This document shows, one piece after another, positions 16,647-64,000 of a stretch of DNA of 64,000 nt. The first letter of the stretch is position 1. Each line of letters begins with the position of its first letter. A model generated the notes under the pieces. That model was not told where the DNA came from and did no database searches. It saw only the letters and a program-made list of their open reading frames with translations. A program made the position numbers and the translations under genes. The DNA is from Spirochaetales bacterium (GTDB lineage: Bacteria > Spirochaetota > Spirochaetia > UBA9216). Location: assembly GCA_016342585.1 (NCBI GenBank), contig JAEINK010000007.1, forward strand, positions 40,042 through 104,041. Direction: 5' to 3'.

Positions 16647-16830
16647 TTGCGTTCTTCCTATATCTAATATAGTACAGAATACCTGAATCTACTTAGTCTC
16701 AATTGTAAGATTTACATAGAATTTACAATTATATATGTATAGCTGCCAATATGTTACCTGGAAACTTATTAATCAAATAAATTCTTTGATTTTTTTTAGA
16801 ATAGTTGTGATAATGGAATTAGAGGTAGAG

Positions 16831-18066: not shown

Positions 18067-18079
18067 GCGTGGAGGAGCA

Positions 18080-41589: not shown

Positions 41590-42492
41590 TCAGTTTACGG
41601 TCATCCTGTTTTTTCCGGACTCTTTGCTCTTGTACATTAAATCGTCGGCACGTTTTACAAGGGATTTAATCGAGTCCTTTGTGGTAGCGATCGTACCGCC
41701 CATGGATATTGTAACAGATAATTTTTCATCTTCCTTCAGAATGAACGAGTTTTCTACAAGCACCCTGAGCCTGTCACCCAGATAATTCAGATCCTCTTTG
41801 TTTATATTGGGGATAACTCCCAAAAACTCCTCTCCGCCCCAACGTCCAAAGACATCGAATGGTCTGGCTGCCATGGAGAGGGTTTGAGCTACAAATTTCA
41901 GGATATCGTCTCCCACTTCATGTCCATATGTGTCGTTGAAATTTTTAAAGTTATCGATATCTATGAAAATAACACCGAAAGGGATCTTGATCCTCTGAAA
42001 CTCTTTCATCCTTTTTTCAATTTCGTTTTCAATGTATTTTCTATTCGGAACATTGGTTAAAGGATCAATCAGAGCCAGTTTTTCCAGTTCTTTGATCCTA
42101 TGCATTGTGGCTTCCTGCTGGCTGATATCAGTAAAGATTTCAGAACCGCCTATAATTATTCCATCATCATCCTTGATCGTGCTTGTTCTGACGGAAATAT
42201 GAACTCGATGGCCATCCCGATGATGGAGGTATACATCGGCTTCCCTTGGTTTTTCGTCACACAGGCTGGCGGCCAGCGGGCAGAGTCCGAGACAGAGCTG
42301 ATTCCCCTCTTTATCTACATGGTTGAGAATATTATCCGAACAGGCTCTACCTATGACCTCTGACGCCTTAAAACCGGTAATTTTTTCGGCAGCTTTGTTC
42401 CAGTATGTGATTGTTCTGTTTGTATCGGTAAAATAGATCCCGTCATTCAGGTTCTGGATGATGTCCTGGTAAGAATTTTCCTGTATCTTCAT
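41590..42492 (-). CDS. PAS-GGDEF diguanylate cyclase
   Basis: PAS segment (DGIYFTDTNRTITYWNKAAEKITG) and GGDEF domain with RWGGEEFLGV and an upstream I-site-like RLRV. Confidence 0.88.
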   Translation of the reverse strand: MKIQENSYQDIIQNLNDGIYFTDTNRTITYWNKAAEKITGFKASEVIGRACSDNILNHVDKEGNQLCLGLCPLAASLCDEKPREADVYLHHRDGHRVHISVRTSTIKDDDGIIIGGSEIFTDISQQEATMHRIKELEKLALIDPLTNVPNRKYIENEIEKRMKEFQRIKIPFGVIFIDIDNFKNFNDTYGHEVGDDILKFVAQTLSMAARPFDVFGRWGGEEFLGVIPNINKEDLNYLGDRLRVLVENSFILKEDEKLSVTISMGGTIATTKDSIKSLVKRADDLMYKSKESGKNRMTVN

Positions 42493-44093: not shown

Positions 44094-45211
44094 GAAAAAA
44101 AACAGGTATAATCATTATTATATTGGCAGGACTCTGTGTAACCGGGGCTTCCTTCTTCCTGCTATTACAAAAGCCTCCTATAAAACTTGGGTTTCTCTCC
44201 GATTTTTCACCTAAAAGTGCAGTTTACAGTGTGAATGGACGAAATGGAGTCCTGATGGCTGTTGATGAAATCAATGCATCGGGTGGTGTCCATGGAAGGC
44301 TTCTGGAGCTTGTTTCTGAAAATAATGGTTTGGAGCCTGAAATCTGCAGGGATGCCCTGAGAAAGCTTCTTTTACAGGGTGTTCAGGGGATAATCGGTCC
44401 GTTTCATTCAAGCATGGCACGGGTTGTTATGGATGAGGCAAAAAATGAGGATATACTCATTGTCTGTCCTACTGTTTCCGGCCGTATCCTGCGGGAACAG
44501 GATGATAATATGATTTGTATCAACTCCTCCGCTGATAAGGATGGTTTTCTCCTTGCCCGGGCCTTAGTTGAGCGCGGTGATGAAAATGTGGCCATTGTGT
44601 ATTCTGGTGATAATGTCGAATACTCCGGGACTGTTATCAGTGGATTTAAAGAGGGTCTTGCCGGATCTTCTGTTGAAGTTATTTATGAAGAGATCTTTTA
44701 CGATACAAGTGAGCTTCATGAAATTGTAAACACCCTTATAGAGATTGAACCTGATGGTATCTTGTTATCCAGTAACGGCAGGGATGGGGCTGAAATTATG
44801 CAGCAATATACCCGTATTAAGGACCTGCCTCACCTTTATTCCGATCAGTGGATGCTGCTTACGGATGTTCTTTCCTTTGCCGGGCATACCGCTGAAGGAT
44901 TAATTCTCGTGGATAACTTTTCTCATGATCAGAACGAAAGGGATAATGATTTTAAAAGTAGATATTTCGAGAAATACTCCATCTATCCGAACTATGCGGC
45001 TGTTCTTGCTTATGAAGCAGTGATGGTCTTTTACTATGGTGTGGAAAGAGCCGGGCCAGATGTAAACGTGGAGAAAATAAAAAATGAAATTATTAATAAA
45101 AGACATTTCCAGGGTGTGTACCAGGATTTTCATATAGATTCCTTCGGGGATGGCTTTCGGAATGAGAGTCTGGTAATTATTAAAAATGGTGAATATTCTC
45201 TCTATGAATAG
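44090..45211 (+). CDS. Second LivK-type binding protein, membrane-anchored, orphan
   Basis: N-terminal TM anchor. IKLGFLSDFSPKSAVYSVNGRNGVLMAVDEINASGGV...IIGPFHSSMA. Its ATG overlaps the previous stop (ATGA). Confidence 0.75.
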   Translation: MRKKTGIIIIILAGLCVTGASFFLLLQKPPIKLGFLSDFSPKSAVYSVNGRNGVLMAVDEINASGGVHGRLLELVSENNGLEPEICRDALRKLLLQGVQGIIGPFHSSMARVVMDEAKNEDILIVCPTVSGRILREQDDNMICINSSADKDGFLLARALVERGDENVAIVYSGDNVEYSGTVISGFKEGLAGSSVEVIYEEIFYDTSELHEIVNTLIEIEPDGILLSSNGRDGAEIMQQYTRIKDLPHLYSDQWMLLTDVLSFAGHTAEGLILVDNFSHDQNERDNDFKSRYFEKYSIYPNYAAVLAYEAVMVFYYGVERAGPDVNVEKIKNEIINKRHFQGVYQDFHIDSFGDGFRNESLVIIKNGEYSLYE

Positions 45212-47441
45212 GATAAGCATACGTAGATTTTTATTCAGGAATCTGATTTATACAATTTTTATTCCTATTCTTATTCTCGGGGTTGCGGGTATTTTTATTC
45301 CTTCGAGGATTTTAAGCAAAGAGATTTCTGCGGCAGATAAAAATCAGGCAATACTCATCGAGACTCTTGTTGAATACTACCTTGATGCTCCCCTGCAAGG
45401 GCTGATGTCTGTGGTGTCCATATATGAAAGCGGCCTGATAAAAGATACGGATGAAATGACAAAAGCCCTCAGGTTGATTTCTGCGGCGAACGATGATGTT
45501 TTAAATTTACAGTATGCCGATGCGCGAGGTCATGTCATCGCCGTATACCCAAGAGAAAATCATCTAATTGGTACAGATGTATCGGGGCATGATTATTTTC
45601 ATGAAACAATGAAAGGTGATAAAATTTTCTGGTCACCCTCTTTTATTTCTGAATATGCGGATTACCCCATGTCTACAGTCAGCATTCCTTTTGAAAATGG
45701 GGTGCTCACCGCTTTTTTCTCACTCACCAATAACGGGAAGATCAGGAATGCTGTTAATTTATTAGGGTCAGGCCAGCTAATCACTGTTACCGATCAGAAT
45801 GGGGTTTATATTGTGAGCCCGGACAATCGTAAAGTCCTTTTACGGGAATACAGCCCAATTTTTTATGAAGCAAAAAAACACTGGGAAGGTGAGCGGTTGA
45901 TTTGGCGAAGTGAATATGAAGGGAAATCCTACATTACCAATATAAATTTCCTGGAAGATACGGGGTGGATGATTGTTCTCTATCGTTCGGTTAAAGAGTT
46001 TGAAACCCCGATTAAAACTCTCTATCTCTGGTTCATTTCTCTCCTGATTTTTGTGGTTTTAATATCGGTTTTCATCGGTGGTAAACTGAGTAACCGCCTC
46101 AGTATCCCTCTTGAGATCCTTGTCTCCTCGGTTAAGACAATCGCCGGCGGAGATTATAATATTAAACTTCCCGAAATACAGTTTACCGAACTGGATCTTC
46201 TATCCGAGGCTTTTCAGAAGATGAGTGTGGAGATCAGGCTGAGAGAAAATGAGCTGCGATATACGGGGCGTCACATATCCAATATCATAGATTCCATGCA
46301 GTCGATACTGGTTGGGGTTAATGAGGATTTGATCATTACCCTCTGGAATCGGCAGGCTGTGGAAAAAACAGGACTAACAGCGGAGATGGCGCTGGGTCAG
46401 AGTATAGAACATGCCATACCCAGGTTGTCGGTTGAGATGGATCGGATCAGAGAAGCCGTTACTCATGGTGTAGAAAAATCGGATTTAAAGCATCCTTCTG
46501 TCGTCAACGGGAATACGCTCTATGAGGATATCATGATCTATCCGTTATCAGGAGAAAAGAAGAGGGGCGCTGTGATCAGGATTTCCGATGTTACCGGTCA
46601 GGTGAAAATGCAGGAGATGTTGATCCAGAACGAAAAGATGCTCTCTGTCGGCGGTCTTGCTGCGGGTATGGCCCATGAGATAAATAACCCCCTGGCTGGT
46701 TTACTTCAAACCCTGAGTGTCATGGGCGGGCGGCTTGGAAATGAGACTGGTTTGAAACAGAATTTAATTGCGGCTGAAGAGGTCGGGATTTCCCTTGATG
46801 ATATGAAACGGTATATGGAGATTCGGGAGCTTCCAAGGATGATGGAATCCATATCTGAATCGGGGAAAAGGATCGCCGCTATCGTAGAGAATATGCTTAC
46901 CTTTGCCAGAAAAGATGAGAGTAAAGTAACTTTCTGCAATATCCCGGAACTTCTTGATTCCACCCTGGAACTTGCCTCAACCGATTTTAATCTGAAGAAG
47001 AAATTTGATTTTAAAAAGATTTCAATCCTGCGTGAATATGAAGAGTTTCTACCCGAGATACCCTGCGAAAGGGGGAAGATACAACAGGTAATATTAAATA
47101 TACTTCAAAACGGTGCCCAGGCCCTGGCTGGTGAGAATATTCCCGATCCAGAGTTCCGGCTTAAAGCCTCCTGTTCCAAAGCCACGGATAGCCTTGTTTT
47201 TGAAATCGGGAACAATGGTCCCCCCATAAGTGATGATTTGATAAAACATATTTTTGAACCCTTCTTTACGACTAAGCCGGTTGGTGAAGGTACCGGACTC
47301 GGCCTTTCTGTCTCCTACTTTATTGTTACCGAGAATCATAAGGGGACAATGCGGGTTGAATCCAATGATGAGTTAGGAGTAAATTTTGTGATCTCTTTAC
47401 CCCTTACTGTAAGTTCAGAAAACCAGGATCTACCTTTGTAG
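45186..47441 (+). CDS. Sensor histidine kinase (Cache-like periplasmic domain, HAMP, PAS, HisKA, HATPase)
   Basis: Two TM helices flank a sensor of about 250 aa. HAMP and PAS segments follow. H-box AGMAHEINNPL and G-box GEGTGLGLSVSY. The start is either ATG 45186 or ATG 45204, and both overlap the end of the upstream gene. Confidence 0.88.
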   Translation: MVNILSMNRISIRRFLFRNLIYTIFIPILILGVAGIFIPSRILSKEISAADKNQAILIETLVEYYLDAPLQGLMSVVSIYESGLIKDTDEMTKALRLISAANDDVLNLQYADARGHVIAVYPRENHLIGTDVSGHDYFHETMKGDKIFWSPSFISEYADYPMSTVSIPFENGVLTAFFSLTNNGKIRNAVNLLGSGQLITVTDQNGVYIVSPDNRKVLLREYSPIFYEAKKHWEGERLIWRSEYEGKSYITNINFLEDTGWMIVLYRSVKEFETPIKTLYLWFISLLIFVVLISVFIGGKLSNRLSIPLEILVSSVKTIAGGDYNIKLPEIQFTELDLLSEAFQKMSVEIRLRENELRYTGRHISNIIDSMQSILVGVNEDLIITLWNRQAVEKTGLTAEMALGQSIEHAIPRLSVEMDRIREAVTHGVEKSDLKHPSVVNGNTLYEDIMIYPLSGEKKRGAVIRISDVTGQVKMQEMLIQNEKMLSVGGLAAGMAHEINNPLAGLLQTLSVMGGRLGNETGLKQNLIAAEEVGISLDDMKRYMEIRELPRMMESISESGKRIAAIVENMLTFARKDESKVTFCNIPELLDSTLELASTDFNLKKKFDFKKISILREYEEFLPEIPCERGKIQQVILNILQNGAQALAGENIPDPEFRLKASCSKATDSLVFEIGNNGPPISDDLIKHIFEPFFTTKPVGEGTGLGLSVSYFIVTENHKGTMRVESNDELGVNFVISLPLTVSSENQDLPL

Positions 47442-48531
47442 TTACTTTTTCTCCATTTTCTGATTTAATCTCGATCCCATTACCTTTCGGAATAATTTCT
47501 GAAACTTTTCCAAAGTTCCCGGGAATTTTAACCAAACCCTGAATGTAACGTACTTGGAAATCCTCCTTCCCTGTGAGTTTCTGGAAGGTTTTTATGCCCT
47601 GTCTGTTAATGTCGTTTTCCTCCACCGAGGCGGCGAGACCATGGGCCAGAAAGCTGCAGACATCCTCTACCCCTACACAGGAATTTCTGCCATTCCAGGG
47701 AGTCTGATGTCGTCCTCGGTTTTCAATCCAAACCAGTGTGGAGGGCAGGACCTTTGGATCTTTCAGTCCGAACCAGAGGTAGCCGTCCTCCGGGGCCGAT
47801 ACGGCCGACCAGGCAAAACCCGGGGCCTCTTCATTGAAGAGTTGAAGATGATCTATGAACCCATCCCGGGCAGGAAAAACCGAACAATCTGTATAGGGTT
47901 CATCTTTCCAGATAGTGGGTACCTTTTCGAGGTTTTTAAATTCTTCAGCCGGGGCCAGGGAGAAATATTCACCATTACGGAAGGGACCGGGGAGCCTGTA
48001 ATCGGTAATCCCGAATTTTATCGGTGATGTGCTAATATATTTTTTGGTACCGCCCGGGAATATGGGGTGGTGGCCAAGGGAGGTTGGTCCTGTGAATCCT
48101 TGAATTTTATGGCAGATATAGATGTTGTTTTCACCAGGTCTCAGGTCTATCTGTTTTATAATCTTGCCTTTTCTGGATTTTGTTTTTAATTGAAGTTCTA
48201 TTCGGCTTGTGTCTCCCCCGGATGTAAGCTGCCATTTTTCTTCGGAAACCTCACCGTGGGGCGGGTGGTGTTCGTTTTTCCAGGAGTTGTTTCCGCCAAA
48301 GGGCAGGCAGAAAAAATCACCCCTTATAGGCGTAAGGAGTCCAGGTTGGCCAGTCATATCGATCTTTTCTTCTGCCCAGGGGTTTATATAAAAAGGGTTA
48401 ACCGGTTTATCAGTATCCTTGAAAAAGGTGACGGGAGCCATCATTCCACCCATCTCTGTGAGGCTTAAACTGATTGTGTTGTTCACTATTGTCCAGCTTT
48501 TCTGTCCGGCTATGACTGATGAAATGATCAT
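47404..48531 (-). CDS. Hypothetical protein (possibly galactose-mutarotase-like beta-sandwich)
   Basis: 375-aa uninterrupted ORF. Segments such as GDFFCLPFGGN...HPPHGE loosely recall aldose-epimerase-superfamily proteins, so the family assignment is weak. Confidence 0.55.
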   Translation of the reverse strand: MIISSVIAGQKSWTIVNNTISLSLTEMGGMMAPVTFFKDTDKPVNPFYINPWAEEKIDMTGQPGLLTPIRGDFFCLPFGGNNSWKNEHHPPHGEVSEEKWQLTSGGDTSRIELQLKTKSRKGKIIKQIDLRPGENNIYICHKIQGFTGPTSLGHHPIFPGGTKKYISTSPIKFGITDYRLPGPFRNGEYFSLAPAEEFKNLEKVPTIWKDEPYTDCSVFPARDGFIDHLQLFNEEAPGFAWSAVSAPEDGYLWFGLKDPKVLPSTLVWIENRGRHQTPWNGRNSCVGVEDVCSFLAHGLAASVEENDINRQGIKTFQKLTGKEDFQVRYIQGLVKIPGNFGKVSEIIPKGNGIEIKSENGEKVTTKVDPGFLNLQ

Positions 48532-51526: not shown

Positions 51527-52618
51527 ATGGATAATTCAAAAAAGCTTAAAGTGATTATTATAATTGTTGCGGTCACTATCCTGATCGTTCTATTACTTAT
51601 AATCCCCCCGGCACTTGCCAAACAACGTCGCTTAAAGGAGATTTATATTGACCTCTCTGATTTGGATCCCGTCGACTCATTATTTTTTACTGAACTCGAT
51701 CTGTTTTTAGAGAATAATTCCATAGATTTAATTAACGAGGCCGAATCAAACCTTTACATTTTAAATGGTACCGAAATCTCCACATTAGAAAATTCAGACC
51801 TTTCCATAAAAAGGGCTAATTTAAATTCTGATAGATCGAATTTTATTGCCTTTAACTCCTATGTTTTGATTGCCGACACCCGATGGGGACAGTCTCCCAC
51901 CAAAAACAGAGGAGCGAGTATCAGTCAATTGAATGACTGGCTTGTTAATTTAAACCCGTCAATTTCGCCATCCGTAATCGTAGCCGGGGATGAAGAGGAA
52001 GATTTTGCGGCTTTTATTCTGTATTTAGCAGGAGAATTGCTTGAGGATTCATCATTTCATCAACTTATCGACTATCTTCATGAAGGAAATTCGAATAATG
52101 AAAATGATTCGAATTGGCTGGTACAATTAGAACCTGTATTGAACCAGATAAACAATTGGCGCAATAAGGGCATTCTTGCCGCTAATTGGACCAATTGGGA
52201 TTTCATTGCCCTGGAAAATACTATGGAAACCGGGAAGGCACCACTGACCTTTGAGCTCCGCAGCAGATATAAAGCGATGGACTGGAATAGTCGCTTCCAT
52301 CTGGAGAGTCATCCTCTTCCCATGGGAGCCGGGCAAAACCAATCAATTTTGTCAGGTCAGGCAATTGTTCTGGAAGAAGGATTTGGAGTACGAGCAGATA
52401 TCCATTCATCTTTTACTAAAAAATTACAGAACAGTGCCTTTCAGGAAACCATTGAAGAGGGAACCAACTGGAGTCCGGTCAGCATCCCGGCTAAACTATT
52501 GAACAGGGAACATCGCGATATCGTTCGTCTGTATGAAAGTGCCACCTTTTTTAATTTGATAACAACAGAATTGGCCATGCATCCCCTCTTTGAGAGGATG
52601 CATATAGCCTTAAGGTAA
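51527..52618 (+). CDS. Membrane-anchored hypothetical protein
   Basis: 363 aa with a single N-terminal TM helix (VIIIIVAVTILIVLLLIIPP). The remainder is unassigned. RBS ggagg upstream. Confidence 0.6.
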   Translation: MDNSKKLKVIIIIVAVTILIVLLLIIPPALAKQRRLKEIYIDLSDLDPVDSLFFTELDLFLENNSIDLINEAESNLYILNGTEISTLENSDLSIKRANLNSDRSNFIAFNSYVLIADTRWGQSPTKNRGASISQLNDWLVNLNPSISPSVIVAGDEEEDFAAFILYLAGELLEDSSFHQLIDYLHEGNSNNENDSNWLVQLEPVLNQINNWRNKGILAANWTNWDFIALENTMETGKAPLTFELRSRYKAMDWNSRFHLESHPLPMGAGQNQSILSGQAIVLEEGFGVRADIHSSFTKKLQNSAFQETIEEGTNWSPVSIPAKLLNREHRDIVRLYESATFFNLITTELAMHPLFERMHIALR

Positions 52619-52627
52619 ACGGTTTTT

Positions 52628-55600
52628 CTATGGCGTTTCATCCAGTAAAATCGCTTCCTCAATTGTCGAGCCATTATAACCGACGATGATTTGCCCTGCC
52701 AAAGCTGTTGTTGAGTCGGTCTCAATAAATGAGGGATTCTGCCCCGGTGCTGTAGTCGAGATAACAGTTAACACTTCCCAATTGCCTGTATAATTACCAC
52801 TCGATGGATCAGCCCCGTTTTCATAAGCCCATTCTTCCGGAGTATTTGTATCTACATAAGTTCCTTTTGCTGCAACGGGGTATGCAACTCTTAGAGAATA
52901 TTTAGTTCCCCCATAGGACAAGGAGTAAGAACTGATAGTCGGTCGATAATCGGTCCCTGCAGTATCATCAAAATCCTTTATCACGATATCGTTATACATG
53001 CCATTGGTGAACAGAGCATCCACTGTTGATACTGAAATCTCGGCATCTGCAACATCGTAGGAAGATAAGTATGCATATTTCAGATTACTGTTGGTTCCAT
53101 CAAAATAACTTAGATGTATACCCCCAGCAGGATCGACATCCATGGCAACATACTGTCCGGCACCGGTATCGATCGCAGTGGTACGTGTGGTCCATGCTCC
53201 GGGAGAATTACCGGGATCAGTATTATAGGCAAGCTTTAACTCACCATTTTGTTCATCATAGTAGGCAATATAGGCATTGCCGTTTACATCATCCCAGGCC
53301 ATATCAAAGTATTGAGAATCAGCTCCACCGGTGGTTACTTCTGTTCGGGCAATACCTGCGTTTGGTGTTCGAATACCCACATCATATCCGGTACTTCCAT
53401 AATCATTGGTATCATCACTGAATTTCTCCAAATCACTCCACCATCTGGTATTCGTGCCATCACGAGCCAGACGTGTCGTATTTGTTACACCGGTACCGGT
53501 TTGAAAACTCCAGAAAACAATCGAACGTGATTCTGATGCCTGATCGAAATAAGCCACATAATTGGTAGTTCCCGTATCGCCGCCATCAACTTCCATTTGC
53601 AGGTTAATATAACGATTCATGACCACTTCACTGTAACTGCTATAGTTGTTATCATTTATAAACGATAAGTTCCCCAGTCCAAGTCGGTCTGTGCTGGTGT
53701 TTTGCCAGTTATAGGCAGCAGCTTCATATGCCTGGTCTTTTCCCCATTGAACCGAGCCATAATACTGCCATGCTGTTTGTCCGCTACTCCAGTTCATGTT
53801 ATGGAGGTAGATCCACATGGGGGTTCCGTCATCATTATACGCGAAATTCCCTCCTTTAATTGACCATGAATTTGTTAGCTGTGTACCGTTCAGATAAACC
53901 CTCTGTCCATTTTCTACATACATCCAGCTCATGTCGGTTCTTCCACTATTGGGAACCATAACAGCTTCGGTTTTACTGGTATAAGCGGTTGTATCGGTAT
54001 CCCAGAAGGCAAGATAGCGATCATCAGTTAGGTGCGGAGCAAAATCTGAGGGTTCCTGATTTTGGTCGAGAGCATCATTATTCGTTGAATTTATTGACCT
54101 TGTGCCATTAGTGATAATACTCAAGACACCGGATACCGTACTATCTTTTCGGGTATCTACCCACAGGAAATCGGTAGTATCCCAATCATCAATAGTCAGT
54201 GTTTCGGTACCAACATAAACTTCATTCGTACCGGTACCATCCGGATCAAGATTAAACCCGGTTATACGAATCAGATCCGTATTAATATCACTGGTTCCAA
54301 TGGAGTACGTACCACGAGCACTGCGTTTCAGATATTGAAGAGTTCCATTTTCAAAAACAGTTTGAACATCCGTGATATAGGGTACAACATCAACAATAAT
54401 TGAGTCTGCAGCAGTCCGTGGAGTAGATGCTTTATCGGATACAGTGAATGTTATATTTACATTATCGGCAACGACATCTGCCAATCTGGCGGAGTTCCAC
54501 TGAAAACTCCAGTTAAAACCTTCTCCATTATCCTGAGAGATATAGTAAGTATCTGTATCAATTGCGAAAGCCCAGTCAGCACCTGGATCGGCTAATGCCC
54601 CACCAGCCTGCGTATATATATCAAAAGCTGTGCCCCCGTTGTATCCTGGTATGGTTGCCTGTATTCGACCAATCTGCTGATTATCTTCAACCCTTCCTCG
54701 GAATATAATCGTCCCGGAAATATCAGCATCATCATCTGTCGTATCATTTCCACTGTCACCTGGATTCTGAATACCATTATCATATTGTGTCTGTGTTGCG
54801 TACTCAACATGGCCCAATCTTAATGGTGTTGCATCACCACTCATAGCAATATTGTCTTCATAATCTTCAACGGCCGGCGGCTCACCATTACCACCTGGAG
54901 CTGCCGTATGATCCCACTCTCCTGTATGAGCGCTATATTGTTGTCCCAGCGGTGCCGAATAAATGACAGGATCAATTTCATCCTCATTATCGATAGTCAC
55001 AGTAATGATGACTGTTTGAGACAGGTTCTCATCCGGATTATCACTGGCAGCATTTGTGCTATCAAAAACCTGTATACCAAAAGTGTAATTACTGTCACCA
55101 TCAGGGAAATTCGTCGCATTCGATGTATCTATAACAACTTCCGGATTAAGGAGATTAGTAGAACTGTTAAACTCCGTTGCAGAATACACATAAGGATCAA
55201 GCTCGGTACCAGTTCCTCCTGTTATTCGTTTAATTGAATACCGCAAAGTTCCATTCCCGGTATCAGCTATTGTATTTGCTTTGATTAATAATGCATCATT
55301 TACGGCTGTGTATCCAATTGTGCCATAACTGCTGAAATCGGATTTCTCACTTTCTCCAATAATTGGATCAAGACTACCATCTACGTCGCCATTAAGGTTT
55401 GTTCCGATGGTCAGTGAAGAAATCTCCGGTTTGTTATTTGCTATAAAAGCACTTAAAGTTGCTGGTTGGGAACCTGCCGTTCCCGCATCGGAATCATAAT
55501 AATTGCCAGCATCATCCTGGGCGATATAATGAATTGTCACGGAACCGTCATCTATCAGAGACGAGTCAATTTGACCTTCCCAGTTGTAAGTTCCGGATGA

Positions 55601-58600
55601 GAGGGATAAGTATTCTGGAATACCATCATCATCACCGGCAGAACCGTTATCATTTCCATCTTCAAGGGTATTATCAATAACCATTCGGTAGGCTGTATAA
55701 ACAGTATTGCCTTCATCGAGGACATCGGCTTCAGAAAAACCGGCAATTGGAGATGGATAGGTATTACCACTATCTTCATCATCATCCTGAAGAGGAATAA
55801 TTTCACCGTTAATATTTGTTAAATAGACGACAATGCGGTCAATACCGCTGATGAAGCCTTCATCTTTAACGGTTCCTTTAATACTGGCACTGGTTCCCAT
55901 AATTTCGGTATCTCCCGTATAGGTCAGTTCAGTTGGAACCTTATTATCAACATCAAAAGACAATGGATATTGATTTGTGTAGGGCGTTCCTGATGTCGTA
56001 TCTTCAGCAGTTAAGCGAACACTCATTGACCCTGCGCCATTGGGATATAATCCAGTTGCTTCGGTATCAATGGGAATGTTGACCCTGTAATAATAACCAG
56101 GGAATAGTTCACGTCCAGGATTAGTTATCGGATCACCATTTTCATCTTCCAAGTAATCGAAATATGTATCCTCTTCACCGAGAAAATCAACGGTCATATA
56201 CAGACCGCTTCCAGTATCCGTTTCGATCTTGCCAACTTCCTGGTTCGTTGTCTGGTTCAGATTGAGGTAATTCGCTGCACCCGAATCTTTGGTATCCCAA
56301 TCGTTTAAATTAAAAATTATGGTATTATCAAGAAGCGGTCCTTCGTTGCTGTATATAATTCTGGCAATATTACTTTCGTCATGAACAATACCAGTAAGAA
56401 TTACGGTATCTCCAACAGTTGCACCGCTTTCAAGATTCATTCCATCAAATTGCGGGAAAGCTTTATTAAAGGTGATAACCTGCTTGGTATCTTCGCTGTA
56501 ATCACTGTATACACCATCACCGGGGGTTACTTTATAGTCTTTGGCGCGAACCTTGAAACCCACATCCTGTGTCTCGCCAACACCACTCGGATTGAACTCA
56601 TTATTCTCATTCAACGAGATATTCCAGCTATCGGTTCCATTAACTAGATACCAGTAGACATCATCTGAGGTGTTTACTGGTGTACCCATATCATCGATTT
56701 CATCGAGGGTTCCCTCATCCCAGGTGTCGTAGGTGCCGTCATTCGAGATATCAATAGCAATCTGGACTTTCTCAATGTACTGTCCATCGGTTGCTGTTCC
56801 AAAAACCCGTACGAACCCGCCAACCGTATTACCATCTTCCGGGGATAGTACAGAGACTTCCGGACGGTCTTTTTTCGGGTCGATCTGCAGGGTATAGGAG
56901 GTTAAATAAGAAATATTTCCCGCAACGCCTTCACCGGCACTGTCAATCGTTCTGACATAGAAGGTAAAATCCCAAATATCTCCCCAGGTTTCACCGGCAT
57001 CTTCAACACCATCACCGTCAGTATCACCCTGGTTAACAGAAGAGGATTCGTTTGCATAGTTATTGATATTCGTAAACGTATGACTCCAACTCGTAGTCCC
57101 TGCAACCTCTACCCAGGTACTGGCTTCCAATGTTGCCGGTGAAGTGGGATCAATCTGTCGACCCAAACCAATTTTAACACTTTCAACACCGGCGCCACCG
57201 GTATTATCAATAGTCGTTCCCCCGATTGTCAGAGGACCAAATACGGTAGCATTGTTCACAGGCGTTGTGACTGAAATGGTGGGGGCTGTTTTATCTATAT
57301 TGATCTGTTTGGCTGTCAGATTAGTATTATTAACTGAATCGGTAGCCAATACATAAATTGTGTGGGAACCATCACCGAGACTGCTCTGATCAATTGTAAA
57401 ACTCCAATTTGCCGTATCTCCGGATATCGTTGTAGCCCCAGTGGAAAAATCATTGTTATCAATTTTGTATTTTAATGATGTGATAGATGTTTCATCGTCA
57501 CTTGTACCGGTAAAGGTAAAGGAGTTATTGGCTGACCATGTTATATTATCAGCGGGAGTGCTGTAGCTTACTTCCGGAATTTCAGTATCCAGTTTAAAAT
57601 CAATCTTGCCTGTATCTGTTCGGGAATAGTCGGTAGCGGAATAATCCTGACCGTTATTATCATCTGTATCGATGGTGCGAACCCTGATACTCCGTACTCC
57701 ATTTCCATTATTATTTAGGACAACCCGCCAATCGATATCGGTTTGACCGTAAGAACCACTTGTTAATACAACTGTTTCAGATCTTGAAGGCGCTGCGGTA
57801 GAGTTATCCTTATCCCATGTATCAACCAGGATAGTGGAAATTCCATCATCATCAATTACATTTCCGGTTATTGTTGTCGTTGTGATTGTCGAGCTTCCAT
57901 CTGTATCAATATTATTGATAGTAATTTCCGGATTATCCAGAGTTTGATCTGCCTGAAAGATAAGATCATGAACACCGCTGCCATAATCAACACCGCTGTT
58001 CCAAATATTCCCGGCATCATCGGTAACGATAGCCCTTAGGGTAAACTCATAAAGTCCTGAGCCTAAATCGTTAGCGTAGCTTAACAGGCTTGTATTTCTG
58101 GTATCAAAATCTGTAATTTCCCAATAATCAGTCCCAATAAGAGAACCCGTCGGGAGATCCATTTCAGCGTTGCCATTATTCACATCGACGATTTTAAAGG
58201 TAATTGACTGAACCCTATAATTATCACTGGTCTCACCACTTATGGTGATGATATTGTTCTGTGTATCTGCCGAAGTCTCCGGATCAAAGGAAGCCTCTGG
58301 CAATGTTTTATCAACATATATGCTGACACTGCTATTACGGGTAAAAGTCCCATCACTGGCCGTTAAAAATATTTCATATTCGCCGGTTCCAAATGATGTA
58401 TCAATATTTTGACTGAATGTTTTAGATGCAGTACCGTTAAAGTCAAAAATTGTTGTTGGTGCAATAATCTGTGAACCATTACGTTCAACCCGGTACTGTA
58501 AAGATTTTACTAATGTGTCATCCTGTACCGTTCCTGTAATTGAAAAATCTGCTGTCTGATAGCTCCCCGCTGCGGGAGATAAACCTATGAAGTCAGGTTC

Positions 58601-61600
58601 ATCTGTATCAAAATTAAACCCTACCTCTTCAGCAGCCGCCAGAGTTGTTCCATTTACATCGGTAACCATAATCTGGATTGACTTGTTGCCGTCGCTAACT
58701 CCGTTTACCGTAAATGAGAAGCTGCGGTCAGTTATTGCTCCGGTTACATTAAAGTCGGTCCAGAGTCCCCAACTTGTTCCATTATAATATCGATATTGAG
58801 CCGATCCGGAATCTCCACTGATACCATCATCATCGGTTATGGTACCAATTACTGTCGTATTGGTGCTTGATATATTCTGATTTTGTGTCGGTGCCGTAAT
58901 CGTTACATCAGGAATATCACTGCTTTGATCGATTGAAATTGTAAAAGTCTCATTCCCTTCATTTCCATTACGATCTGTAACCTGAATTGCCACATCCAGA
59001 TCACTGGAATCGGTGAAATCAGTTGTCGTAATAGGGCCAATTGTAAAACTGTCACTAATCGGCAGTATTACCCAGCCATTGGTGGCTATCTGATATTGAA
59101 CATTACTGATATTGGCTACGAGTTGATCTTCTAGAATGGTCCCTGACAGTGTCATAACACCATTTCCTGTGGCTGTTTTCGCACCCCCGTCAAAATTTAT
59201 CGATGGTATTGTGCCGGAAAACCCTATAACAGGAGCTTGTTTATCGTAGTTAATCGTTTGAGTCGTTTGACTGGTGTTACCAGCCTGATCTGTAAATTGA
59301 AAACGGTAGAAATAGGTCCCTTCCGCCTGAGAGCCGACAGTACGGTTCCAGGTCCAGGTATGAGCATCATTATCGAATGCAGCTGTAGCAGGATCCGCCG
59401 GACTGAAGTTTGTATTATCTGAACTTGTTTCCACTGCAATGGCAGAAATACCACTACCATCGGTAAACGTTCCTCCAATTGTGAAGTTACCATTTTCATA
59501 CTGAGTACCAGATCCGCCCGTAACTGAGATAACGGGGGCAGCCTGGTCAAAGCCGAAATTATGAGTGGTTATAGCAGAATCATTACCTGCTCTATCAATA
59601 GAATAGAGATGCAGGGTTCGCTCTCCCTCGGCAGCAATAACAACACTGGCCCTCCAGTTACCATCACCATCAACACTGGCTGCTAACCAGGCAGCATTAC
59701 CCTTCGCCGGAGCGACACCACCGCGAAGAGTCTCGGTAAAATAAACGGTATTTATACCCGAGTTCCCATCGGCAGCAGTACCGCTGAAGATATAGGTACC
59801 ACTGTTGAGCCAGGTATCGGCTGTTGGTGTTGTCACCAGGGGTAATTCCGGAGGAGTACTGTCGATGATAACAGTACGCGTTAGGATAGTTTGTTTTGCT
59901 GAAGCATCAGTTGCGGTTATAGTGTAGAGATAATTTCCATCTGCTACCCCGCCCTGAGGCATATCCGGGAGTGTCCAAGTGGCTGATAATCCGGAAAGAT
60001 CCGTATTTAAGACTTCAACTGCGGCATCGGAATCTTTCTTTTCAGTTATGGTAATATTACTTAAGGCATTTGTATCGGACAGATTTCCATCCAACTGATA
60101 TATAGCTGATTTGAACACACTGTCATCAACCAGCGTTTCTTCGGTTAATACCGGAAAGTTACGGTCAACCATCAAATAAATCGGACCTGCAGTTCGAGTA
60201 TCTACAGCTACACCGTCTTTGGCTGATAATTCATCCGAAGCCCGTAAGTAGAACAATGTCGTACCTTCATCAATTACTGTGGGAAGACTCAAATTATGAT
60301 TTGTGCTGATGTTAACACCATCAACAAGAGCATCACCACCATTTCGATTGATAGATTCCCAGGAAGTGTTATCTCCAACAGAAATTTGAATTGTTGAAAC
60401 ATCTACCAGGTCATCATCTGTTATTACAAAACGCAAAACTGCATTGGATTCGATCAGGTTTTTATACGAATCTTCGGCCGTAACAGCCGTCGTATCGATA
60501 CCTGTAAAACTGATAACCGGTAGATCCGAATCCTGATCGACATCAAGATCTTGTGTAATAACCCGGATGTTTCCGGCGCGGTCATAGGTTCTTAACCATA
60601 ATTTATAGTCGACCCCAAGGCCTTGATCCGTTGTTAAATCAACATCATATGTATCAGCATTCACTGCAAAGTTGCTTGTAGTCGCTGTTGTATCAATAGC
60701 AAAAACCGGTGATGTTTTGGAACCGGTTATCGTTGTATAGTTACCATCGACAGGAGTCTCTGCAGCCGGCAACAATGCCCACTGAACATAATCCAGCGCA
60801 ATACCATCAGCAATGGCAGCTCGAATTGTAATTTTTCCATTAACTGTATGGGTATCGATAACCGGTGTTAACGAAGTGATTTCTGCTTCAGGATCTACAG
60901 TATCAATCACGATATTTCGGATTATACTAGTCGTCTTCCCTACCTCATCAAAGGCTGTAATTGTGACTTCATAGGTCCCGTCATCCAGAGCGGTTTCGAG
61001 AGTTGTACTCCATGTTGGATTACCAGTTGTATCATTTAACAGTACGTTTGGAGAACCTGTATCGTTTTTAATATAAGATACAACCACGCTGGCAATTCCA
61101 TTAGCATCTGAGACATCTCCACCGAAATCAATATCAGTGTTTTTGTATACCGTTGACGATCCACTAATGAGAGAATCATTCTCTGTTATAACCGGAGGAG
61201 CCTGATCAATATCAAACTCAACGGTTACCGCTGAACCAAAGTCCGTCCGGTTTCCAGAGGCATCTTCCGCCAGCACATGAATATACCATGTTCCTTCAGC
61301 TCGTCCTGAATCATCAGTACCGCTGCCATCTGTATCAAAATCATCTGTAAAACTCCAGTTACCCGAAGTCGCTAATTCTGTATAATTTCCTAAAGTAGAG
61401 GAGGCCAGGGCGGTCTGATCTATAAGATAATAGATTTTTTCCATTCCCACACCGACATCACCACTGGTTCCACGGAAAGTAAAGGCATCTCCTGAAAGGG
61501 CATTTAAACCAGTCTGTCCCGCACCGGGACTGCTTACTTCAAGTGTATCGGGAGCCGTTTGATCCAGGCGGACTGTAGACACTGTTTCAATGCTGTTTTT

Positions 61601-64000
61601 ATTTGCATTATCGGTAGTAATAATTGTATATACATATTCACCGTCCGCACCGGCTGATAAATCCTGCACACCAATATTGTCGGGATCTCGTGGAAGATTT
61701 GTGAGAGTCCACGAATCTGTTCCTGTTGGACCATTCGTTAAAACCGGAATATCCAATCCGCCGTCTTTGCGCTGAGAAATAGCCACAGAAGCGATTCCAA
61801 AATTATCTGAGGCTGTCCCTGTAATTGAAAAACCAGCCTTAACATCACGGTTAGTTGCGCTGGTGAGAACTGTTACGGGAATTGCCGTATCATAGATAAA
61901 TGCTTCCATATGATTATCATTATGTTCTGCATTTTCCCATAAGCTGAAATTTCCCGCTTTATCTTCCACTTGGACATAAATATTTTTTAAACCCTCGGAT
62001 CCCAGAGCAGCAGCAAGATCGACTGTTGCTGACCATGTCGTTTTACCGGCAGCAAGCTGAGCGCCTGTTCCATCCGGAGCAAAAGAAATTCGAACTGCTT
62101 CGACACCGCTACCCCCTGTATCGGCAGCATTTCCTTCAAAAAGGAAACTGGCTCCATCATTAACATCAGCAGCAGGAACGGACGTTATAGTTGCCGTCGG
62201 AGGTGTTGAATCCATCTCCACTTCCCGGATGACAGAAAAGGGTCGGTTGGCAAGATCTGTAGCCGTAATGGTAAAAATCCAGACTCCATCATTTCCTGGT
62301 CCCAGTGTATAGGGTCCCCAATTTTCAAGATCAGTAACTTCGTTATAGACTTCACCCTGATCAACACTGTCTTTGACAGCTGTAATTACAACAGATTTAA
62401 GACCAAGAGTATCGGAGGCTGTACCCGACATACTTAAAATATTATTCTCAAGGACTCTGGCTGTAGTGTTTAGAGTTTCTTCCTCAATTTCCGGCAGAGA
62501 GTAGTCGGCATCAATGCCAGTTAATATTGTTTCAGCAGATAAATTTCCAAGAACATCATAAGCTCTGAAAGAGATTGTCTCATCGATTGCCTGTGTCAAA
62601 GTAGAAAATGTACTGGAAAATGTAGATGAACTGATTGAACCAGCATCGCTGAAAGAGGTCCAGGAGCCTGAACCGATTCTGTATTGAACATCGGCCAGAC
62701 CACTATCTGTTCCGCTACCACCATTATCACTCCAGGACCCACTAGCAACAAAGGAAAGATTTGTTATAAGCTGATCATCAACAATATTGGTAAGAGAAAA
62801 TGTTGGAGGCGTAGTATCATATTTAACAGTAAGAAACTCTATTGCTTCTTTATTATAAGTGTCAATTGCTTTTACCCTTATAACATGGTTCCCTTCTGCA
62901 CTTCCGTCTGACGGAATAGTCACATCGGCTGTCCAGTCAGGAGCTGTGTAGCTGACACCACTAGTTGAATAGGTCGCTCCTCCATCTGTACTTATCTGTA
63001 TAGAAGCAATTCCATTGGCATCTGTTGATGTCCCATTCAGAGTGAAAGCGCTGTTCTGCCAGGTATCATTGTAGGTATCTTTATTGGTTATGGACAATGT
63101 CGGATTCGAAAGATCCAGTCCGAATGAAATAGCCGGAAGAGTGGTTATCAGGTCGGAATTATCTTTTACTCGGAATTGGATTGAGTTTCCTGCTCCTTCG
63201 GAAAGCCCTGATACAGCCTGGGACCAGCTGATAGTTCCTGTTGCAGTATCCCATCCATCTCCGTTAAGGTTGTATTCAACAAGTTTTATTCCCGCATCAT
63301 CAATAGCTGTTCCGCGAATTGTAAAACCTGAAGTTTCAACAAAATCCCCATCACTTAAATTCGTAACATCCAGAACCGGCGGAGTCGTATCATAGAAGAC
63401 ATTTCTTGTAATTATGCTGGTATTTCCGACAAGGTCGGTAACCGTTATTACATATGTATATGTTCCGTCGGTGGTAGGCTGGGCATCTACATCCCATGCT
63501 CTTGAAACATCTCCCAATGAGCCTGCCAGGGTAAAACCAGGATCGATTCCGGCAGTACCGGAGTTCGCACCTGTTGCTTCGATTGTAACATTGGCAACAC
63601 CGAGATCATCGCTTGCAGTACCTGCAATATTGAATAATACGGATTTGTAGAGAAGATCCGTCCAGTTAACAGTTGTTTCCGGTGAGGCAAAATCTGCATC
63701 TACATTGATGGTTACAACCTCACCAGTATTATCTTTTGCATCTGTTCCCCTGAAGTGAATATCCTGGTTTAAGCCCAGGTTAAAGACCACATTACCATTC
63801 CAGTTTGTGGTTCCTGTTAGGGTTGTCCAGGTATCATTTGAATCATTTGCGTCATCGGAATAATCAAAACTGTATTCAACCGTTGATAGACCACTTCCTC
63901 CATTATCTGTTCCTGTTCCTCTAATATTGAAAGTTGCAGTGGGTATAATGAAATCGTCTACAATATTGGACGGTGTAACAACGGGACCGGAGGAATCATA
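52628..64000 (-). CDS. Giant cysteine-free extracellular protein built from tandem Ig-like modules; N-terminus lies beyond the window
   Basis: Stop TAG at 52630..52628. The tracked start 63790 is an internal GTG. I translated the 70 codons from 63791 to 64000 in the same frame and found no stop (YDSSGPVVTPSNIVDDF...TWTTLTGTTNWNGN), and they continue the same module pattern. Confidence 0.9.
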   Translation of the reverse strand, partial: YDSSGPVVTPSNIVDDFIIPTATFNIRGTGTDNGGSGLSTVEYSFDYSDDANDSNDTWTTLTGTTNWNGNVVFNLGLNQDIHFRGTDAKDNTGEVVTINVDADFASPETTVNWTDLLYKSVLFNIAGTASDDLGVANVTIEATGANSGTAGIDPGFTLAGSLGDVSRAWDVDAQPTTDGTYTYVITVTDLVGNTSIITRNVFYDTTPPVLDVTNLSDGDFVETSGFTIRGTAIDDAGIKLVEYNLNGDGWDTATGTISWSQAVSGLSEGAGNSIQFRVKDNSDLITTLPAISFGLDLSNPTLSITNKDTYNDTWQNSAFTLNGTSTDANGIASIQISTDGGATYSTSGVSYTAPDWTADVTIPSDGSAEGNHVIRVKAIDTYNKEAIEFLTVKYDTTPPTFSLTNIVDDQLITNLSFVASGSWSDNGGSGTDSGLADVQYRIGSGSWTSFSDAGSISSSTFSSTFSTLTQAIDETISFRAYDVLGNLSAETILTGIDADYSLPEIEEETLNTTARVLENNILSMSGTASDTLGLKSVVITAVKDSVDQGEVYNEVTDLENWGPYTLGPGNDGVWIFTITATDLANRPFSVIREVEMDSTPPTATITSVPAADVNDGASFLFEGNAADTGGSGVEAVRISFAPDGTGAQLAAGKTTWSATVDLAAALGSEGLKNIYVQVEDKAGNFSLWENAEHNDNHMEAFIYDTAIPVTVLTSATNRDVKAGFSITGTASDNFGIASVAISQRKDGGLDIPVLTNGPTGTDSWTLTNLPRDPDNIGVQDLSAGADGEYVYTIITTDNANKNSIETVSTVRLDQTAPDTLEVSSPGAGQTGLNALSGDAFTFRGTSGDVGVGMEKIYYLIDQTALASSTLGNYTELATSGNWSFTDDFDTDGSGTDDSGRAEGTWYIHVLAEDASGNRTDFGSAVTVEFDIDQAPPVITENDSLISGSSTVYKNTDIDFGGDVSDANGIASVVVSYIKNDTGSPNVLLNDTTGNPTWSTTLETALDDGTYEVTITAFDEVGKTTSIIRNIVIDTVDPEAEITSLTPVIDTHTVNGKITIRAAIADGIALDYVQWALLPAAETPVDGNYTTITGSKTSPVFAIDTTATTSNFAVNADTYDVDLTTDQGLGVDYKLWLRTYDRAGNIRVITQDLDVDQDSDLPVISFTGIDTTAVTAEDSYKNLIESNAVLRFVITDDDLVDVSTIQISVGDNTSWESINRNGGDALVDGVNISTNHNLSLPTVIDEGTTLFYLRASDELSAKDGVAVDTRTAGPIYLMVDRNFPVLTEETLVDDSVFKSAIYQLDGNLSDTNALSNITITEKKDSDAAVEVLNTDLSGLSATWTLPDMPQGGVADGNYLYTITATDASAKQTILTRTVIIDSTPPELPLVTTPTADTWLNSGTYIFSGTAADGNSGINTVYFTETLRGGVAPAKGNAAWLAASVDGDGNWRASVVIAAEGERTLHLYSIDRAGNDSAITTHNFGFDQAAPVISVTGGSGTQYENGNFTIGGTFTDGSGISAIAVETSSDNTNFSPADPATAAFDNDAHTWTWNRTVGSQAEGTYFYRFQFTDQAGNTSQTTQTINYDKQAPVIGFSGTIPSINFDGGAKTATGNGVMTLSGTILEDQLVANISNVQYQIATNGWVILPISDSFTIGPITTTDFTDSSDLDVAIQVTDRNGNEGNETFTISIDQSSDIPDVTITAPTQNQNISSTNTTVIGTITDDDGISGDSGSAQYRYYNGTSWGLWTDFNVTGAITDRSFSFTVNGVSDGNKSIQIMVTDVNGTTLAAAEEVGFNFDTDEPDFIGLSPAAGSYQTADFSITGTVQDDTLVKSLQYRVERNGSQIIAPTTIFDFNGTASKTFSQNIDTSFGTGEYEIFLTASDGTFTRNSSVSIYVDKTLPEASFDPETSADTQNNIITISGETSDNYRVQSITFKIVDVNNGNAEMDLPTGSLIGTDYWEITDFDTRNTSLLSYANDLGSGLYEFTLRAIVTDDAGNIWNSGVDYGSGVHDLIFQADQTLDNPEITINNIDTDGSSTITTTTITGNVIDDDGISTILVDTWDKDNSTAAPSRSETVVLTSGSYGQTDIDWRVVLNNNGNGVRSIRVRTIDTDDNNGQDYSATDYSRTDTGKIDFKLDTEIPEVSYSTPADNITWSANNSFTFTGTSDDETSITSLKYKIDNNDFSTGATTISGDTANWSFTIDQSSLGDGSHTIYVLATDSVNNTNLTAKQINIDKTAPTISVTTPVNNATVFGPLTIGGTTIDNTGGAGVESVKIGLGRQIDPTSPATLEASTWVEVAGTTSWSHTFTNINNYANESSSVNQGDTDGDGVEDAGETWGDIWDFTFYVRTIDSAGEGVAGNISYLTSYTLQIDPKKDRPEVSVLSPEDGNTVGGFVRVFGTATDGQYIEKVQIAIDISNDGTYDTWDEGTLDEIDDMGTPVNTSDDVYWYLVNGTDSWNISLNENNEFNPSGVGETQDVGFKVRAKDYKVTPGDGVYSDYSEDTKQVITFNKAFPQFDGMNLESGATVGDTVILTGIVHDESNIARIIYSNEGPLLDNTIIFNLNDWDTKDSGAANYLNLNQTTNQEVGKIETDTGSGLYMTVDFLGEEDTYFDYLEDENGDPITNPGRELFPGYYYRVNIPIDTEATGLYPNGAGSMSVRLTAEDTTSGTPYTNQYPLSFDVDNKVPTELTYTGDTEIMGTSASIKGTVKDEGFISGIDRIVVYLTNINGEIIPLQDDDEDSGNTYPSPIAGFSEADVLDEGNTVYTAYRMVIDNTLEDGNDNGSAGDDDGIPEYLSLSSGTYNWEGQIDSSLIDDGSVTIHYIAQDDAGNYYDSDAGTAGSQPATLSAFIANNKPEISSLTIGTNLNGDVDGSLDPIIGESEKSDFSSYGTIGYTAVNDALLIKANTIADTGNGTLRYSIKRITGGTGTELDPYVYSATEFNSSTNLLNPEVVIDTSNATNFPDGDSNYTFGIQVFDSTNAASDNPDENLSQTVIITVTIDNEDEIDPVIYSAPLGQQYSAHTGEWDHTAAPGGNGEPPAVEDYEDNIAMSGDATPLRLGHVEYATQTQYDNGIQNPGDSGNDTTDDDADISGTIIFRGRVEDNQQIGRIQATIPGYNGGTAFDIYTQAGGALADPGADWAFAIDTDTYYISQDNGEGFNWSFQWNSARLADVVADNVNITFTVSDKASTPRTAADSIIVDVVPYITDVQTVFENGTLQYLKRSARGTYSIGTSDINTDLIRITGFNLDPDGTGTNEVYVGTETLTIDDWDTTDFLWVDTRKDSTVSGVLSIITNGTRSINSTNNDALDQNQEPSDFAPHLTDDRYLAFWDTDTTAYTSKTEAVMVPNSGRTDMSWMYVENGQRVYLNGTQLTNSWSIKGGNFAYNDDGTPMWIYLHNMNWSSGQTAWQYYGSVQWGKDQAYEAAAYNWQNTSTDRLGLGNLSFINDNNYSSYSEVVMNRYINLQMEVDGGDTGTTNYVAYFDQASESRSIVFWSFQTGTGVTNTTRLARDGTNTRWWSDLEKFSDDTNDYGSTGYDVGIRTPNAGIARTEVTTGGADSQYFDMAWDDVNGNAYIAYYDEQNGELKLAYNTDPGNSPGAWTTRTTAIDTGAGQYVAMDVDPAGGIHLSYFDGTNSNLKYAYLSSYDVADAEISVSTVDALFTNGMYNDIVIKDFDDTAGTDYRPTISSYSLSYGGTKYSLRVAYPVAAKGTYVDTNTPEEWAYENGADPSSGNYTGNWEVLTVISTTAPGQNPSFIETDSTTALAGQIIVGYNGSTIEEAILLDETP
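54401..64000 (-). repeat. Protein-level tandem array of about 90-110-aa Ig-like modules inside the giant gene
   Basis: At least about 24 boundary motifs of the type [YFIVLM]-D-x-[TSQK]-x-P (YDTTPPVLDV, YDTTPPTFSL, MDSTPPTATIT, LDQTAPDTLEV, IDSTPPELPLV, FDQAAPVISVT, YDKQAPVIGFS, IDKTAPTISVT and others). Each is followed by G-T-[AS]-x-D..G[IV] and a conserved W. I saw no long nucleotide-level repeats. Confidence 0.75.

Follow-up and report, generated by a model that had tools for sequence, protein, structure and literature searches.

The giant gene and its product

The window analyzed here is a stretch of 64,000 nucleotides from an uncultured Spirochaetales bacterium (contig JAEINK010000007.1 of assembly GCA_016342585.1), and its last 11.4 kb are occupied by the larger part of a giant minus-strand gene that probably encodes a lipid-anchored, long-reach adhesin (Table 1). 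One minus-strand frame runs uninterrupted from base 64000 down to its stop codon (52628-52630), a length of 3,790 codons, the translation of which is hereafter called the window protein; the other two minus-strand frames close within 13 codons from base 64000. The full-length product, P0037 (4,730 amino acids, aa), came from a profile search that covered 1.84 billion representative proteins exhaustively, and the window protein corresponds exactly to its residues 941-4730. The window covers the C-terminal 80% of the giant protein, and the 5' 2.8 kb of the gene, including the signal peptide and the lipobox, lies beyond the window edge. The giant gene is real and intact.

An earlier account of this DNA, made from the letters and open reading frames (ORFs) without database searches (hereafter, the sequence-only reading), had described one minus-strand frame over the last 11.4 kb, still open at base 64000, and had considered the GTG with which the ORF list begins this gene (entry 52628..63790) to be internal to a larger protein. 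Both statements hold: the frame comprises the 3,790 codons given above, and P0037 starts 940 residues further upstream. The description of the protein as acidic, rich in Thr, Asp, Asn, Ser and Gly and devoid of Cys is equally accurate. In the window protein, these residues account for 12.8% (Thr), 10.4% (Asp), 9.3% (Gly), 8.8% (Ser) and 7.2% (Asn) of the sequence, and there is no Cys among the 3,790 aa, although some 38 would be expected because the other 42 ORFs of the window contain 1.01% Cys (probability of none, ~2e-17). The mature form of P0037 (4,704 aa, ~504 kDa) has a calculated isoelectric point of ~4.05 and contains no Cys after Cys26, which is the sole cysteine of the entire 4,730 aa.

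Table 1. Features of the giant gene in the window; residue numbers refer to the window protein unless stated otherwise (HMM, hidden Markov model; Ig, immunoglobulin; AF2, AlphaFold2)
Feature	Position	Strand	Basis
3' 11.4 kb of the giant gene, residues 941-4730 of P0037 and stop codon	52628..64000	-	Exact substring of P0037
Internal GTG, listed as ORF start, not the real start codon	63788..63790	-	Frame runs on upstream; P0037 starts 940 aa earlier
Stalk: 24 contiguous divergent Ig-like modules of ~100 aa each, residues 1-2598	56207..64000	-	Self-HMM, module alignment, Pfam
Best single Big_7 match, residues 2142-2217, profile positions 1-70 of 70	57350..57577	-	Pfam
Neck: acidic, predicted all-beta, degenerate module-like stretches, residues 2599-3200	54401..56206	-	Self-HMM, BLAST
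Ig/IPT-like beta-sandwich from the conserved 'VDVVPYITD', residues ~3208-3297	54110..54379	-	Family alignment; AF2 model residues 59-148
Beta-propeller head, residues ~3329-3790	52631..54016	-	AF2, Foldseek, homologues

A lipoprotein signal peptide and a conserved motif at the N-terminus

The N-terminus of P0037 reads MNISERLGFFTHKIILILIIFLLSTC/DLLQVGLGESVD (also given as MNISERLGFFTHKIILILIIFLLSTC/DLLQVGLGESVDVVPPEV), i.e., it is a lipoprotein signal peptide with the lipobox LSTC that ends in Cys26. Judged by eye and by regular expression, residues 1-26 (MNISERLGFFTHK-IILILIIFLL-STC) form the classic succession of a positively charged n-region, a hydrophobic core and the lipobox Cys, and this signal peptide is the only hydrophobic segment in P0037. 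Because P0037 and all of the complete relatives examined have a lipoprotein signal peptide with a lipobox Cys at their N-terminus, the predicted route of export is the ordinary Sec/signal peptidase II lipoprotein pathway. The sequence-only reading had considered export and anchoring to be unexplained and had proposed recovery of the N-terminus, which residues 1-940 of P0037 now provide; the puzzle arose because the window edge removed the first 940 codons.

Immediately downstream of the lipobox Cys, P0037 (residues 27-40) and its relatives share the motif C-x(3-5)-(V/I/P/S)-G-L-G-x-x-V-D-x-x-x-P. This conserved stretch may act as a signal for sorting or tethering; alternatively, it may be no more than the first strand of module 1.

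The other signals of secretion and surface sorting that the sequence-only reading had not seen are indeed missing. A search for the RTX (repeats-in-toxin) nonapeptide gives zero matches in the 4,730 aa of P0037, motif searches detect neither LPxTG nor PEP-CTERM, and neither Pfam nor NCBIfam reports a C-terminal domain of the type IX secretion system (T9SS) or another sorting domain in the window protein. Sorting by sortase (LPXTG), T9SS or PEP-CTERM was rejected because no respective C-terminal signal was found.

The array of Ig-like modules and the neck

An HMM built on the window protein itself identifies 24 strong modules that follow each other back to back throughout the stalk, one more at residues 3077-3186 and a few weak ones; in the full-length P0037, 32 modules are detectable. 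The module consensus is D-x-x-x-P ... F-x-I-x-G-T-A-x-D-x-x-G-I-x-x-V ... W ... D-x-x-G-N, in which the GT(A/S)xD core recurs approximately every 97-104 aa and the conserved Trp and the D-x-(T/S)-x-P boundary are present. This is in agreement with the sequence-only reading, which had counted at least about 24 modules delimited by a D-x-T-x-P-type boundary, with the GTAxD core and a Trp, and had suggested that each be compared with Pfam. Such a comparison of the window protein assigns Big_7 (PF17957; E 2e-19, 70.3 bits vs a cut-off of 24.1) to five stretches, with further matches to Big_13, Big_3_3 and Big_3_2, and the modules beyond the five Big_7 stretches are tied to those five through the self-HMM. 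The likeness to Big_7 proteins consists of these five modules above the Pfam threshold, and Big_7 is a domain family without an assigned function, membership of which is uninformative with respect to the lipobox or the propeller. The NCBIfam model of the OmpL47 type (NF047446) scores 39.7 bits against a curated cut-off of 40 over a short stretch (residues 1447-1482) that lies inside one Ig module; with this sub-threshold score and location, membership of the OmpL47 type was rejected.

The modules are also strongly diverged at the DNA level, as had been noted from the sequence. Tandem Repeats Finder reports no array in the giant gene, in which direct repeats reach only 20-32 nucleotides, i.e., chance level, and pairwise identity between modules averages 20% for amino acids and 38% for nucleotides aligned by codon. 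These comparisons support the view that the array consists of old, divergent Ig-like modules in an intact gene and is not an assembly artefact. In homologue searches, the first 900 aa of the window protein yield generic Big-domain proteins only, and scans of genomes and metagenomes with its N-terminal 330 aa recover a single weak relative, L001.

The neck between the stalk and the head shows weak self-HMM matches in addition to the strong one mentioned above and, in BLAST alignments, is collinear with the same region in five relatives (L006, L009, L010, L012 and L016). No credible Pfam family was detected in the neck even at a permissive threshold. The AF2 model of neck residues 2640-3200 was left uninterpreted because of its low confidence (predicted local distance difference test score, pLDDT, 48; predicted template-modeling score, pTM, 0.36).

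Comparison of individual family members shows that stalk and head need not be conserved in parallel. Residues 1065-2019 of P0037 (window ~58764-61628, minus strand) are 41% identical to residues 789-1755 of P0155, whereas the propeller heads of these two proteins share only 26% identity; between P0037 and P0039 the pattern is reversed, with 43% identity in the head and 24-34% in the stalk. The stalk looks mosaic because P0155 shares the stalk block more than the head and P0039 the reverse, which suggests, at the sequence level, that blocks of modules have been exchanged between family members.

The C-terminal head

The last part of the protein comprises a beta-sandwich followed by a beta-propeller that extends to the final residues, ...VGYNGSTIEEAILLDETP. 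The head is the best-conserved part of the family (40-60% identity, compared to ~24% for the stalks), and the propeller is always located at the extreme C-terminus. The AF2 model of this region, in which the sandwich precedes the propeller, has a pTM of 0.77, with pLDDT values of 80-93 for the blades. Among the Foldseek matches in the PDB, seven-bladed lectins of the PLL/PHL type rank at the top, followed by sialidases and other glycoside hydrolases (E 5e-7 to 1e-4). At the sequence level, the last ~600 residues show no match to Pfam, NCBIfam or PDB, with either a single sequence or the family profile as the query, and nothing credible emerges from Pfam at a permissive threshold on the head. 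As far as can be judged from the model, the resemblance of the head is to a generic propeller and is not a sign of family membership.

The blade motif, Y-I-A-Y-Y-D-x-x-x-x-x-L-K-Y-A-Y (window ~52900-53300; profile positions ~350-445 of alignment A2), has a much wider distribution. On its own, it hits thousands of other proteins, in many of which it occurs 10-27 times (5,037 representatives at E up to 0.001), so the blade is part of a very widespread propeller repeat without a Pfam match here.

A family defined by its two ends

A homologue search with the head region retrieves 21 relatives (25-58% identity) with generic names only, and about 90 library proteins belong to the family at E below 1e-30. 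The names used in the sources are 'hypothetical protein', 'large repetitive protein' and 'beta strand repeat-containing protein', none of which is functional. When species-representative genomes were scanned with an alignment of the head (made from 7 closer sequences), 13 loci were found, 12 of them in Spirochaetota metagenome-assembled genomes (MAGs), namely those of rumen Treponema, Spirochaetales, Sediminispirochaeta and Spirochaetia, and one in a MAG labeled Firmicutes. The HtpG protein encoded in the window, whose named best hits all belong to Spirochaetales or Spirochaetota, shares 73-76% identity with its counterparts in MAGs of Spirochaetales, Spirochaetota and Sediminispirochaeta, which places the source organism. 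The family is unannotated and essentially confined to spirochaetes. The sequence-only reading, in which the protein figured as uncharacterized and adhesin-like, anticipated this outcome: the relatives have no functional names and an adhesin-like layout.

Complete genes, for proteins of 1,833-3,299 aa, are present at four of the genome loci, and a fifth locus starts directly at the lipobox. In all of these (L006, L010, L012, L013 and L016), the N-terminus consists of a signal peptide ending in a lipobox Cys, with '(V/I)GLGxxVDxxxP' after it, and 13 further complete relatives from the library (1,561-4,785 aa) combine the same N-terminal signal with the same C-terminal head as P0037. Members of the family can be recognized by a lipobox Cys followed within ~10 residues by (V/I/P/S)GLGxxVDxxxP, and by a conserved propeller region of ~570 aa at the extreme C-terminus that ends in ...GYxGxxxEEAxLL; P0037 has both. 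The lipobox, the GLGxxVD motif and the terminal propeller are common to at least 19 complete relatives. Low cysteine content is a family tendency rather than a rule because the relatives carry 1-20 Cys.

In most genome loci, the propeller and the stalk are fused. A two-gene system, suggested by some metagenome contigs in which the propeller forms a separate ORF just behind the giant ORF, was considered and rejected: L002 is split by a run of N and L004 by a 1-nucleotide frameshift. The frameshift (L004 9960-10000, in the lineage of L017 and L005, rumen Treponema) lies inside the propeller, where '...KPVLIWKR' and a stop codon are followed by 'GSGNKTGAMMWMY' in the next frame, and the split propeller product of this lineage is recorded on 13 contigs; it could reflect a genuine pseudogene or an assembly error that recurs.

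Two members of the family come from MAGs labeled otherwise, L007 (MWCQ01000029.1) from 'Firmicutes bacterium ADurb.Bin193' and P0180 (MGD9939269.1) from a 'Clostridia bacterium', whereas all other named sources are Spirochaetota. For these two, mis-binning of a short contig seems likelier than horizontal transfer. In L006 (11535-16346) and L010 (8746-15861), the gene directly downstream of the giant lipoprotein gene encodes another Big_7 repeat protein that carries a signal peptide (1,604 or 2,372 aa), so some spirochaetes possess tandem sets of such genes.

Genomic neighborhood

The neighbors downstream of the giant gene encode a protein without a family, a CmpB-like protein, Ada/AlkA, a histidine kinase, binding proteins and a GGDEF protein. 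There are no secretion genes among these downstream neighbors in the window, as the sequence-only reading had also concluded. In particular, genes for the ATP-binding cassette (ABC) transporter, membrane fusion protein (MFP) and TolC components are found neither downstream in the window nor around the complete relatives L006, L010, L012 and L013.

The nearest ORF (51527-52618, plus strand) is convergent with and unrelated to the giant gene and ends 9 bases from its stop codon; no terminator-like hairpin was found between the two. This ORF and that at 47404-48531 (minus strand) encode proteins of 363 and 375 aa without Pfam or NCBIfam matches. Signaling genes are dense in the window: GGDEF-EAL and PAS-GGDEF proteins, a double-receiver response regulator, hybrid histidine kinases and a chemoreceptor are encoded at 11750-13054 (minus), 41590-42492 (minus), 16735-20665 (plus), 30819-32714 (minus) and 45186-47441 (plus).

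Proposed mechanism and alternative explanations

Taken together, the lipobox, the ~32 Big_7-type Ig modules, the neck, the Ig/IPT-like sandwich and the propeller tip lead us to propose that the giant protein is a lipid-anchored, long-reach adhesin that works in a manner similar to the Lig proteins of Leptospira, an explanation that we consider moderately probable. The precursor would be exported by Sec, acylated on Cys26 and cut by signal peptidase II. By inference from lipoprotein biogenesis, lipid modification of Cys26 implies that the N-terminus is held in a membrane by its acyl chains, with the propeller placed at the opposite end of the ~32-module stalk. By analogy with the Lig proteins and the outer surface proteins (Osps) of Borrelia, the anchor might reside in the outer membrane, on its outer leaflet. 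With modules of roughly 4 nm each, the stalk would be more than 100 nm long, and its very acidic composition suggests stiffening by Ca2+. The conserved propeller could then serve as a ligand-binding, possibly glycan-binding, head at the far end. A binding tip on a spacer is the arrangement expected from a conserved head, a fast-evolving stalk and a family of variable length (~1,560-4,785 aa). In a more speculative vein, a mature chain free of Cys would suit a polypeptide that has to be kept free of disulfides while it crosses the envelope.

Many lipoproteins of spirochaetes are exposed on the cell surface. In Borrelia, surface display is the default for lipoproteins, and the outer membrane is crossed in an at least partly unfolded state (bioRxiv 10.1101/2022.12.21.521298). 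A more far-reaching proposal, which we put forward only tentatively and consider rather unlikely to hold in full, is that the family might represent a spirochaete-specific class of half-megadalton surface lipoproteins, in which GLGxxVD would be a sorting signal, the near-absence of Cys would reflect the unfolded passage of ~4,700 residues through an outer-membrane lipoprotein flippase, as by far the largest known cargo of such a pathway, and the propeller would be a new ligand-binding head.

Several considerations weigh against a surface adhesin. Lipidation, surface exposure, Ca2+ binding and the existence of a ligand are all things that we infer, and to our knowledge there is no precedent for ~4,700 residues crossing the outer membrane. 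The fold matches of the head are generic (query-normalized TM scores of 0.26-0.34), so the role of a lectin is one option only. The residue at position -1 of the lipobox is Thr, which is non-canonical for Escherichia coli, although no other residue occupies this position more often in the family. The +2 residue of P0037 is Asp, which in E. coli is a signal for retention in the inner membrane. The E. coli +2 retention rules are not valid in Borrelia (bioRxiv 10.1101/2022.12.21.521298). In Treponema pallidum, many lipoproteins are periplasmic (PMC7521688), so the final location cannot be read from the sequence.

The lack of precedent, the Asp at +2, the T. pallidum lipoproteins and a lipobox that is uninformative on the final location all fit a sub-surface lipoprotein, anchored in the inner membrane or in the inner leaflet of the outer membrane, that would be a structural tether or spacer in the periplasm rather than an adhesin. 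We regard this alternative as unlikely, although it deserves serious consideration. Against it, a stalk of ~32 modules would be several times longer than the periplasm is wide. Furthermore, copy number, protein length and stalk sequence vary widely in the family and look mosaic, as is usual for exposed proteins but not for envelope architecture, and the propeller at the end has a likeness to lectins and glycosidases.

A somewhat lesser likelihood attaches to the possibility that the head is an enzyme on a stalk, resembling a glycoside hydrolase, a sialidase or a polysaccharide lyase and displayed at a distance from the cell to attack polymers, which would be compatible with lipid anchoring. 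The Foldseek matches include sialidases, GH43/GH62 enzymes, PL24 lyases and a rhamnose-glucuronate lyase (E 1e-6 to 1e-4), and many relatives come from MAGs of rumen Treponema, both of which are in line with an enzymatic role. Nevertheless, no sequence match to an enzyme family of Pfam, NCBIfam or the PDB was obtained even with a profile, no catalytic motif was identified, and the top fold matches, within a generic propeller likeness, are lectins.

The sequence-only reading had also mentioned an S-layer or sheath, i.e., a subunit present in many copies that are packed laterally into an outer coat. Many S-layer proteins are, like the giant protein, very acidic, Cys-free and Thr-rich. Pfam and NCBIfam detect neither S-layer homology nor a self-assembly domain, and a chain of ~32 single Ig modules that ends in one globular head has the layout of a fibre or adhesin, not that of a lattice former; the number of modules, moreover, differs approximately three-fold between relatives. 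A coat of this kind is accordingly quite improbable.

A type I-secreted giant adhesin of the RTX type, such as LapA, SiiE or MpIBP, shares size, acidity and tandem Ig-like extender modules with the protein described here (PMC7493085, PMC6272769, PMC5550230) but is refuted at the sequence level by the N-terminal lipoprotein signal peptide, which substrates of the type I secretion system (T1SS) do not have, and by the absence of RTX nonapeptides, with a C-terminus that folds as a propeller, stays conserved up to its final residues and is not a T1SS signal, and with no ABC, MFP or TolC genes downstream or adjoining the complete relatives, so that we give it hardly any credence. Equally far-fetched is the idea that the gene is a pseudogene or that it arose in assembly as an artefact or a collapsed repeat: misassembly is frequent among giant repeat genes, and the two split relatives are cases in point, yet the gene contains no DNA-level repeats able to collapse, its 3,790 codons (4,730 in full) are uninterrupted, and the same architecture, from one end to the other, recurs in more than 15 relatives from independent samples.

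If the lipid-anchored adhesin that we favor is indeed exposed on the surface, the question becomes how spirochaetes carry very large lipoproteins across the outer membrane, and the conserved, unannotated propeller becomes a candidate ligand-binding head in spirochaetes of rumen and sediment. Should the protein instead be periplasmic, it would be an unusual component of the envelope. Whichever location holds, the family of ~90 proteins can now be annotated by its two conserved ends.

Comparison with known systems

The nearest structural matches to the head are the PLL/PHL lectins of Photorhabdus and propellers of the sialidase type (E 5e-7 to 1e-5; target-normalized TM scores of 0.44-0.60). Sequence identity between these matches and the head is only 7-13%, the head is larger (~460 aa), and neither the single sequence nor the profile identifies a relative in the PDB; the likeness is one of general propeller fold.

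Giant Ig-repeat adhesins of double-membraned bacteria have been described mainly as substrates of type I (RTX) or type V secretion. SiiE, LapA and MpIBP are very acidic proteins of at least half a megadalton, in which tens of tandem Ig-like extender modules hold ligand-binding domains off the cell (PMC6272769, PMC5466336, PMC5550230, PMC7493085). The giant protein resembles them in size, acidity and the tens of tandem Ig-like modules, whereas its mode of export and anchoring is the opposite. The RTX adhesins have no signal peptide, leave the cell C-terminus first through the T1SS, contain RTX repeats and stay attached by means of an N-terminal plug; the giant protein has a Sec/signal peptidase II signal, no RTX repeats and no T1SS neighbors downstream.

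The best functional analogy is with LigA, LigB and LigC of Leptospira, surface proteins with a presumably triacylated N-terminal Cys and 12-13 divergent Ig-like domains, among which low identity between neighbors may prevent misfolding (PMC7821625). They function as adhesins, with Ca2+ binding in the case of LigA and LigB (PMC7821625). As in the giant protein, a lipid anchor at the N-terminal lipobox Cys is combined, in a spirochaete, with a string of moderately identical Ig-like domains, and LigB and LigC also end in a non-repeat C-terminal extension. The differences are substantial as well: the Lig proteins consist of Big_2 (PF02368) domains and an extension predicted as Big_5, whereas the giant protein, which is ~2.5-4 times longer, consists of ~32 modules of the Big_7/Big_13 type and a propeller. 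The Pfam scan found no Big_2 or Big_5 in the window protein, nor was sequence homology to Lig structures detected in the PDB. The likeness to Lig is one of the mode of working, not of membership.

A limited full-text search of the literature found no description of a giant lipobox-anchored adhesin of comparable size. Against this background, three points of interest stand out, namely half a megadalton carried on a lipid anchor, a conserved motif after the lipobox and a head without a family assignment. The giant protein appears to join the long-stalk design of the giant adhesins to a plain lipoprotein anchor, in a phylum in which surface lipoproteins are central.

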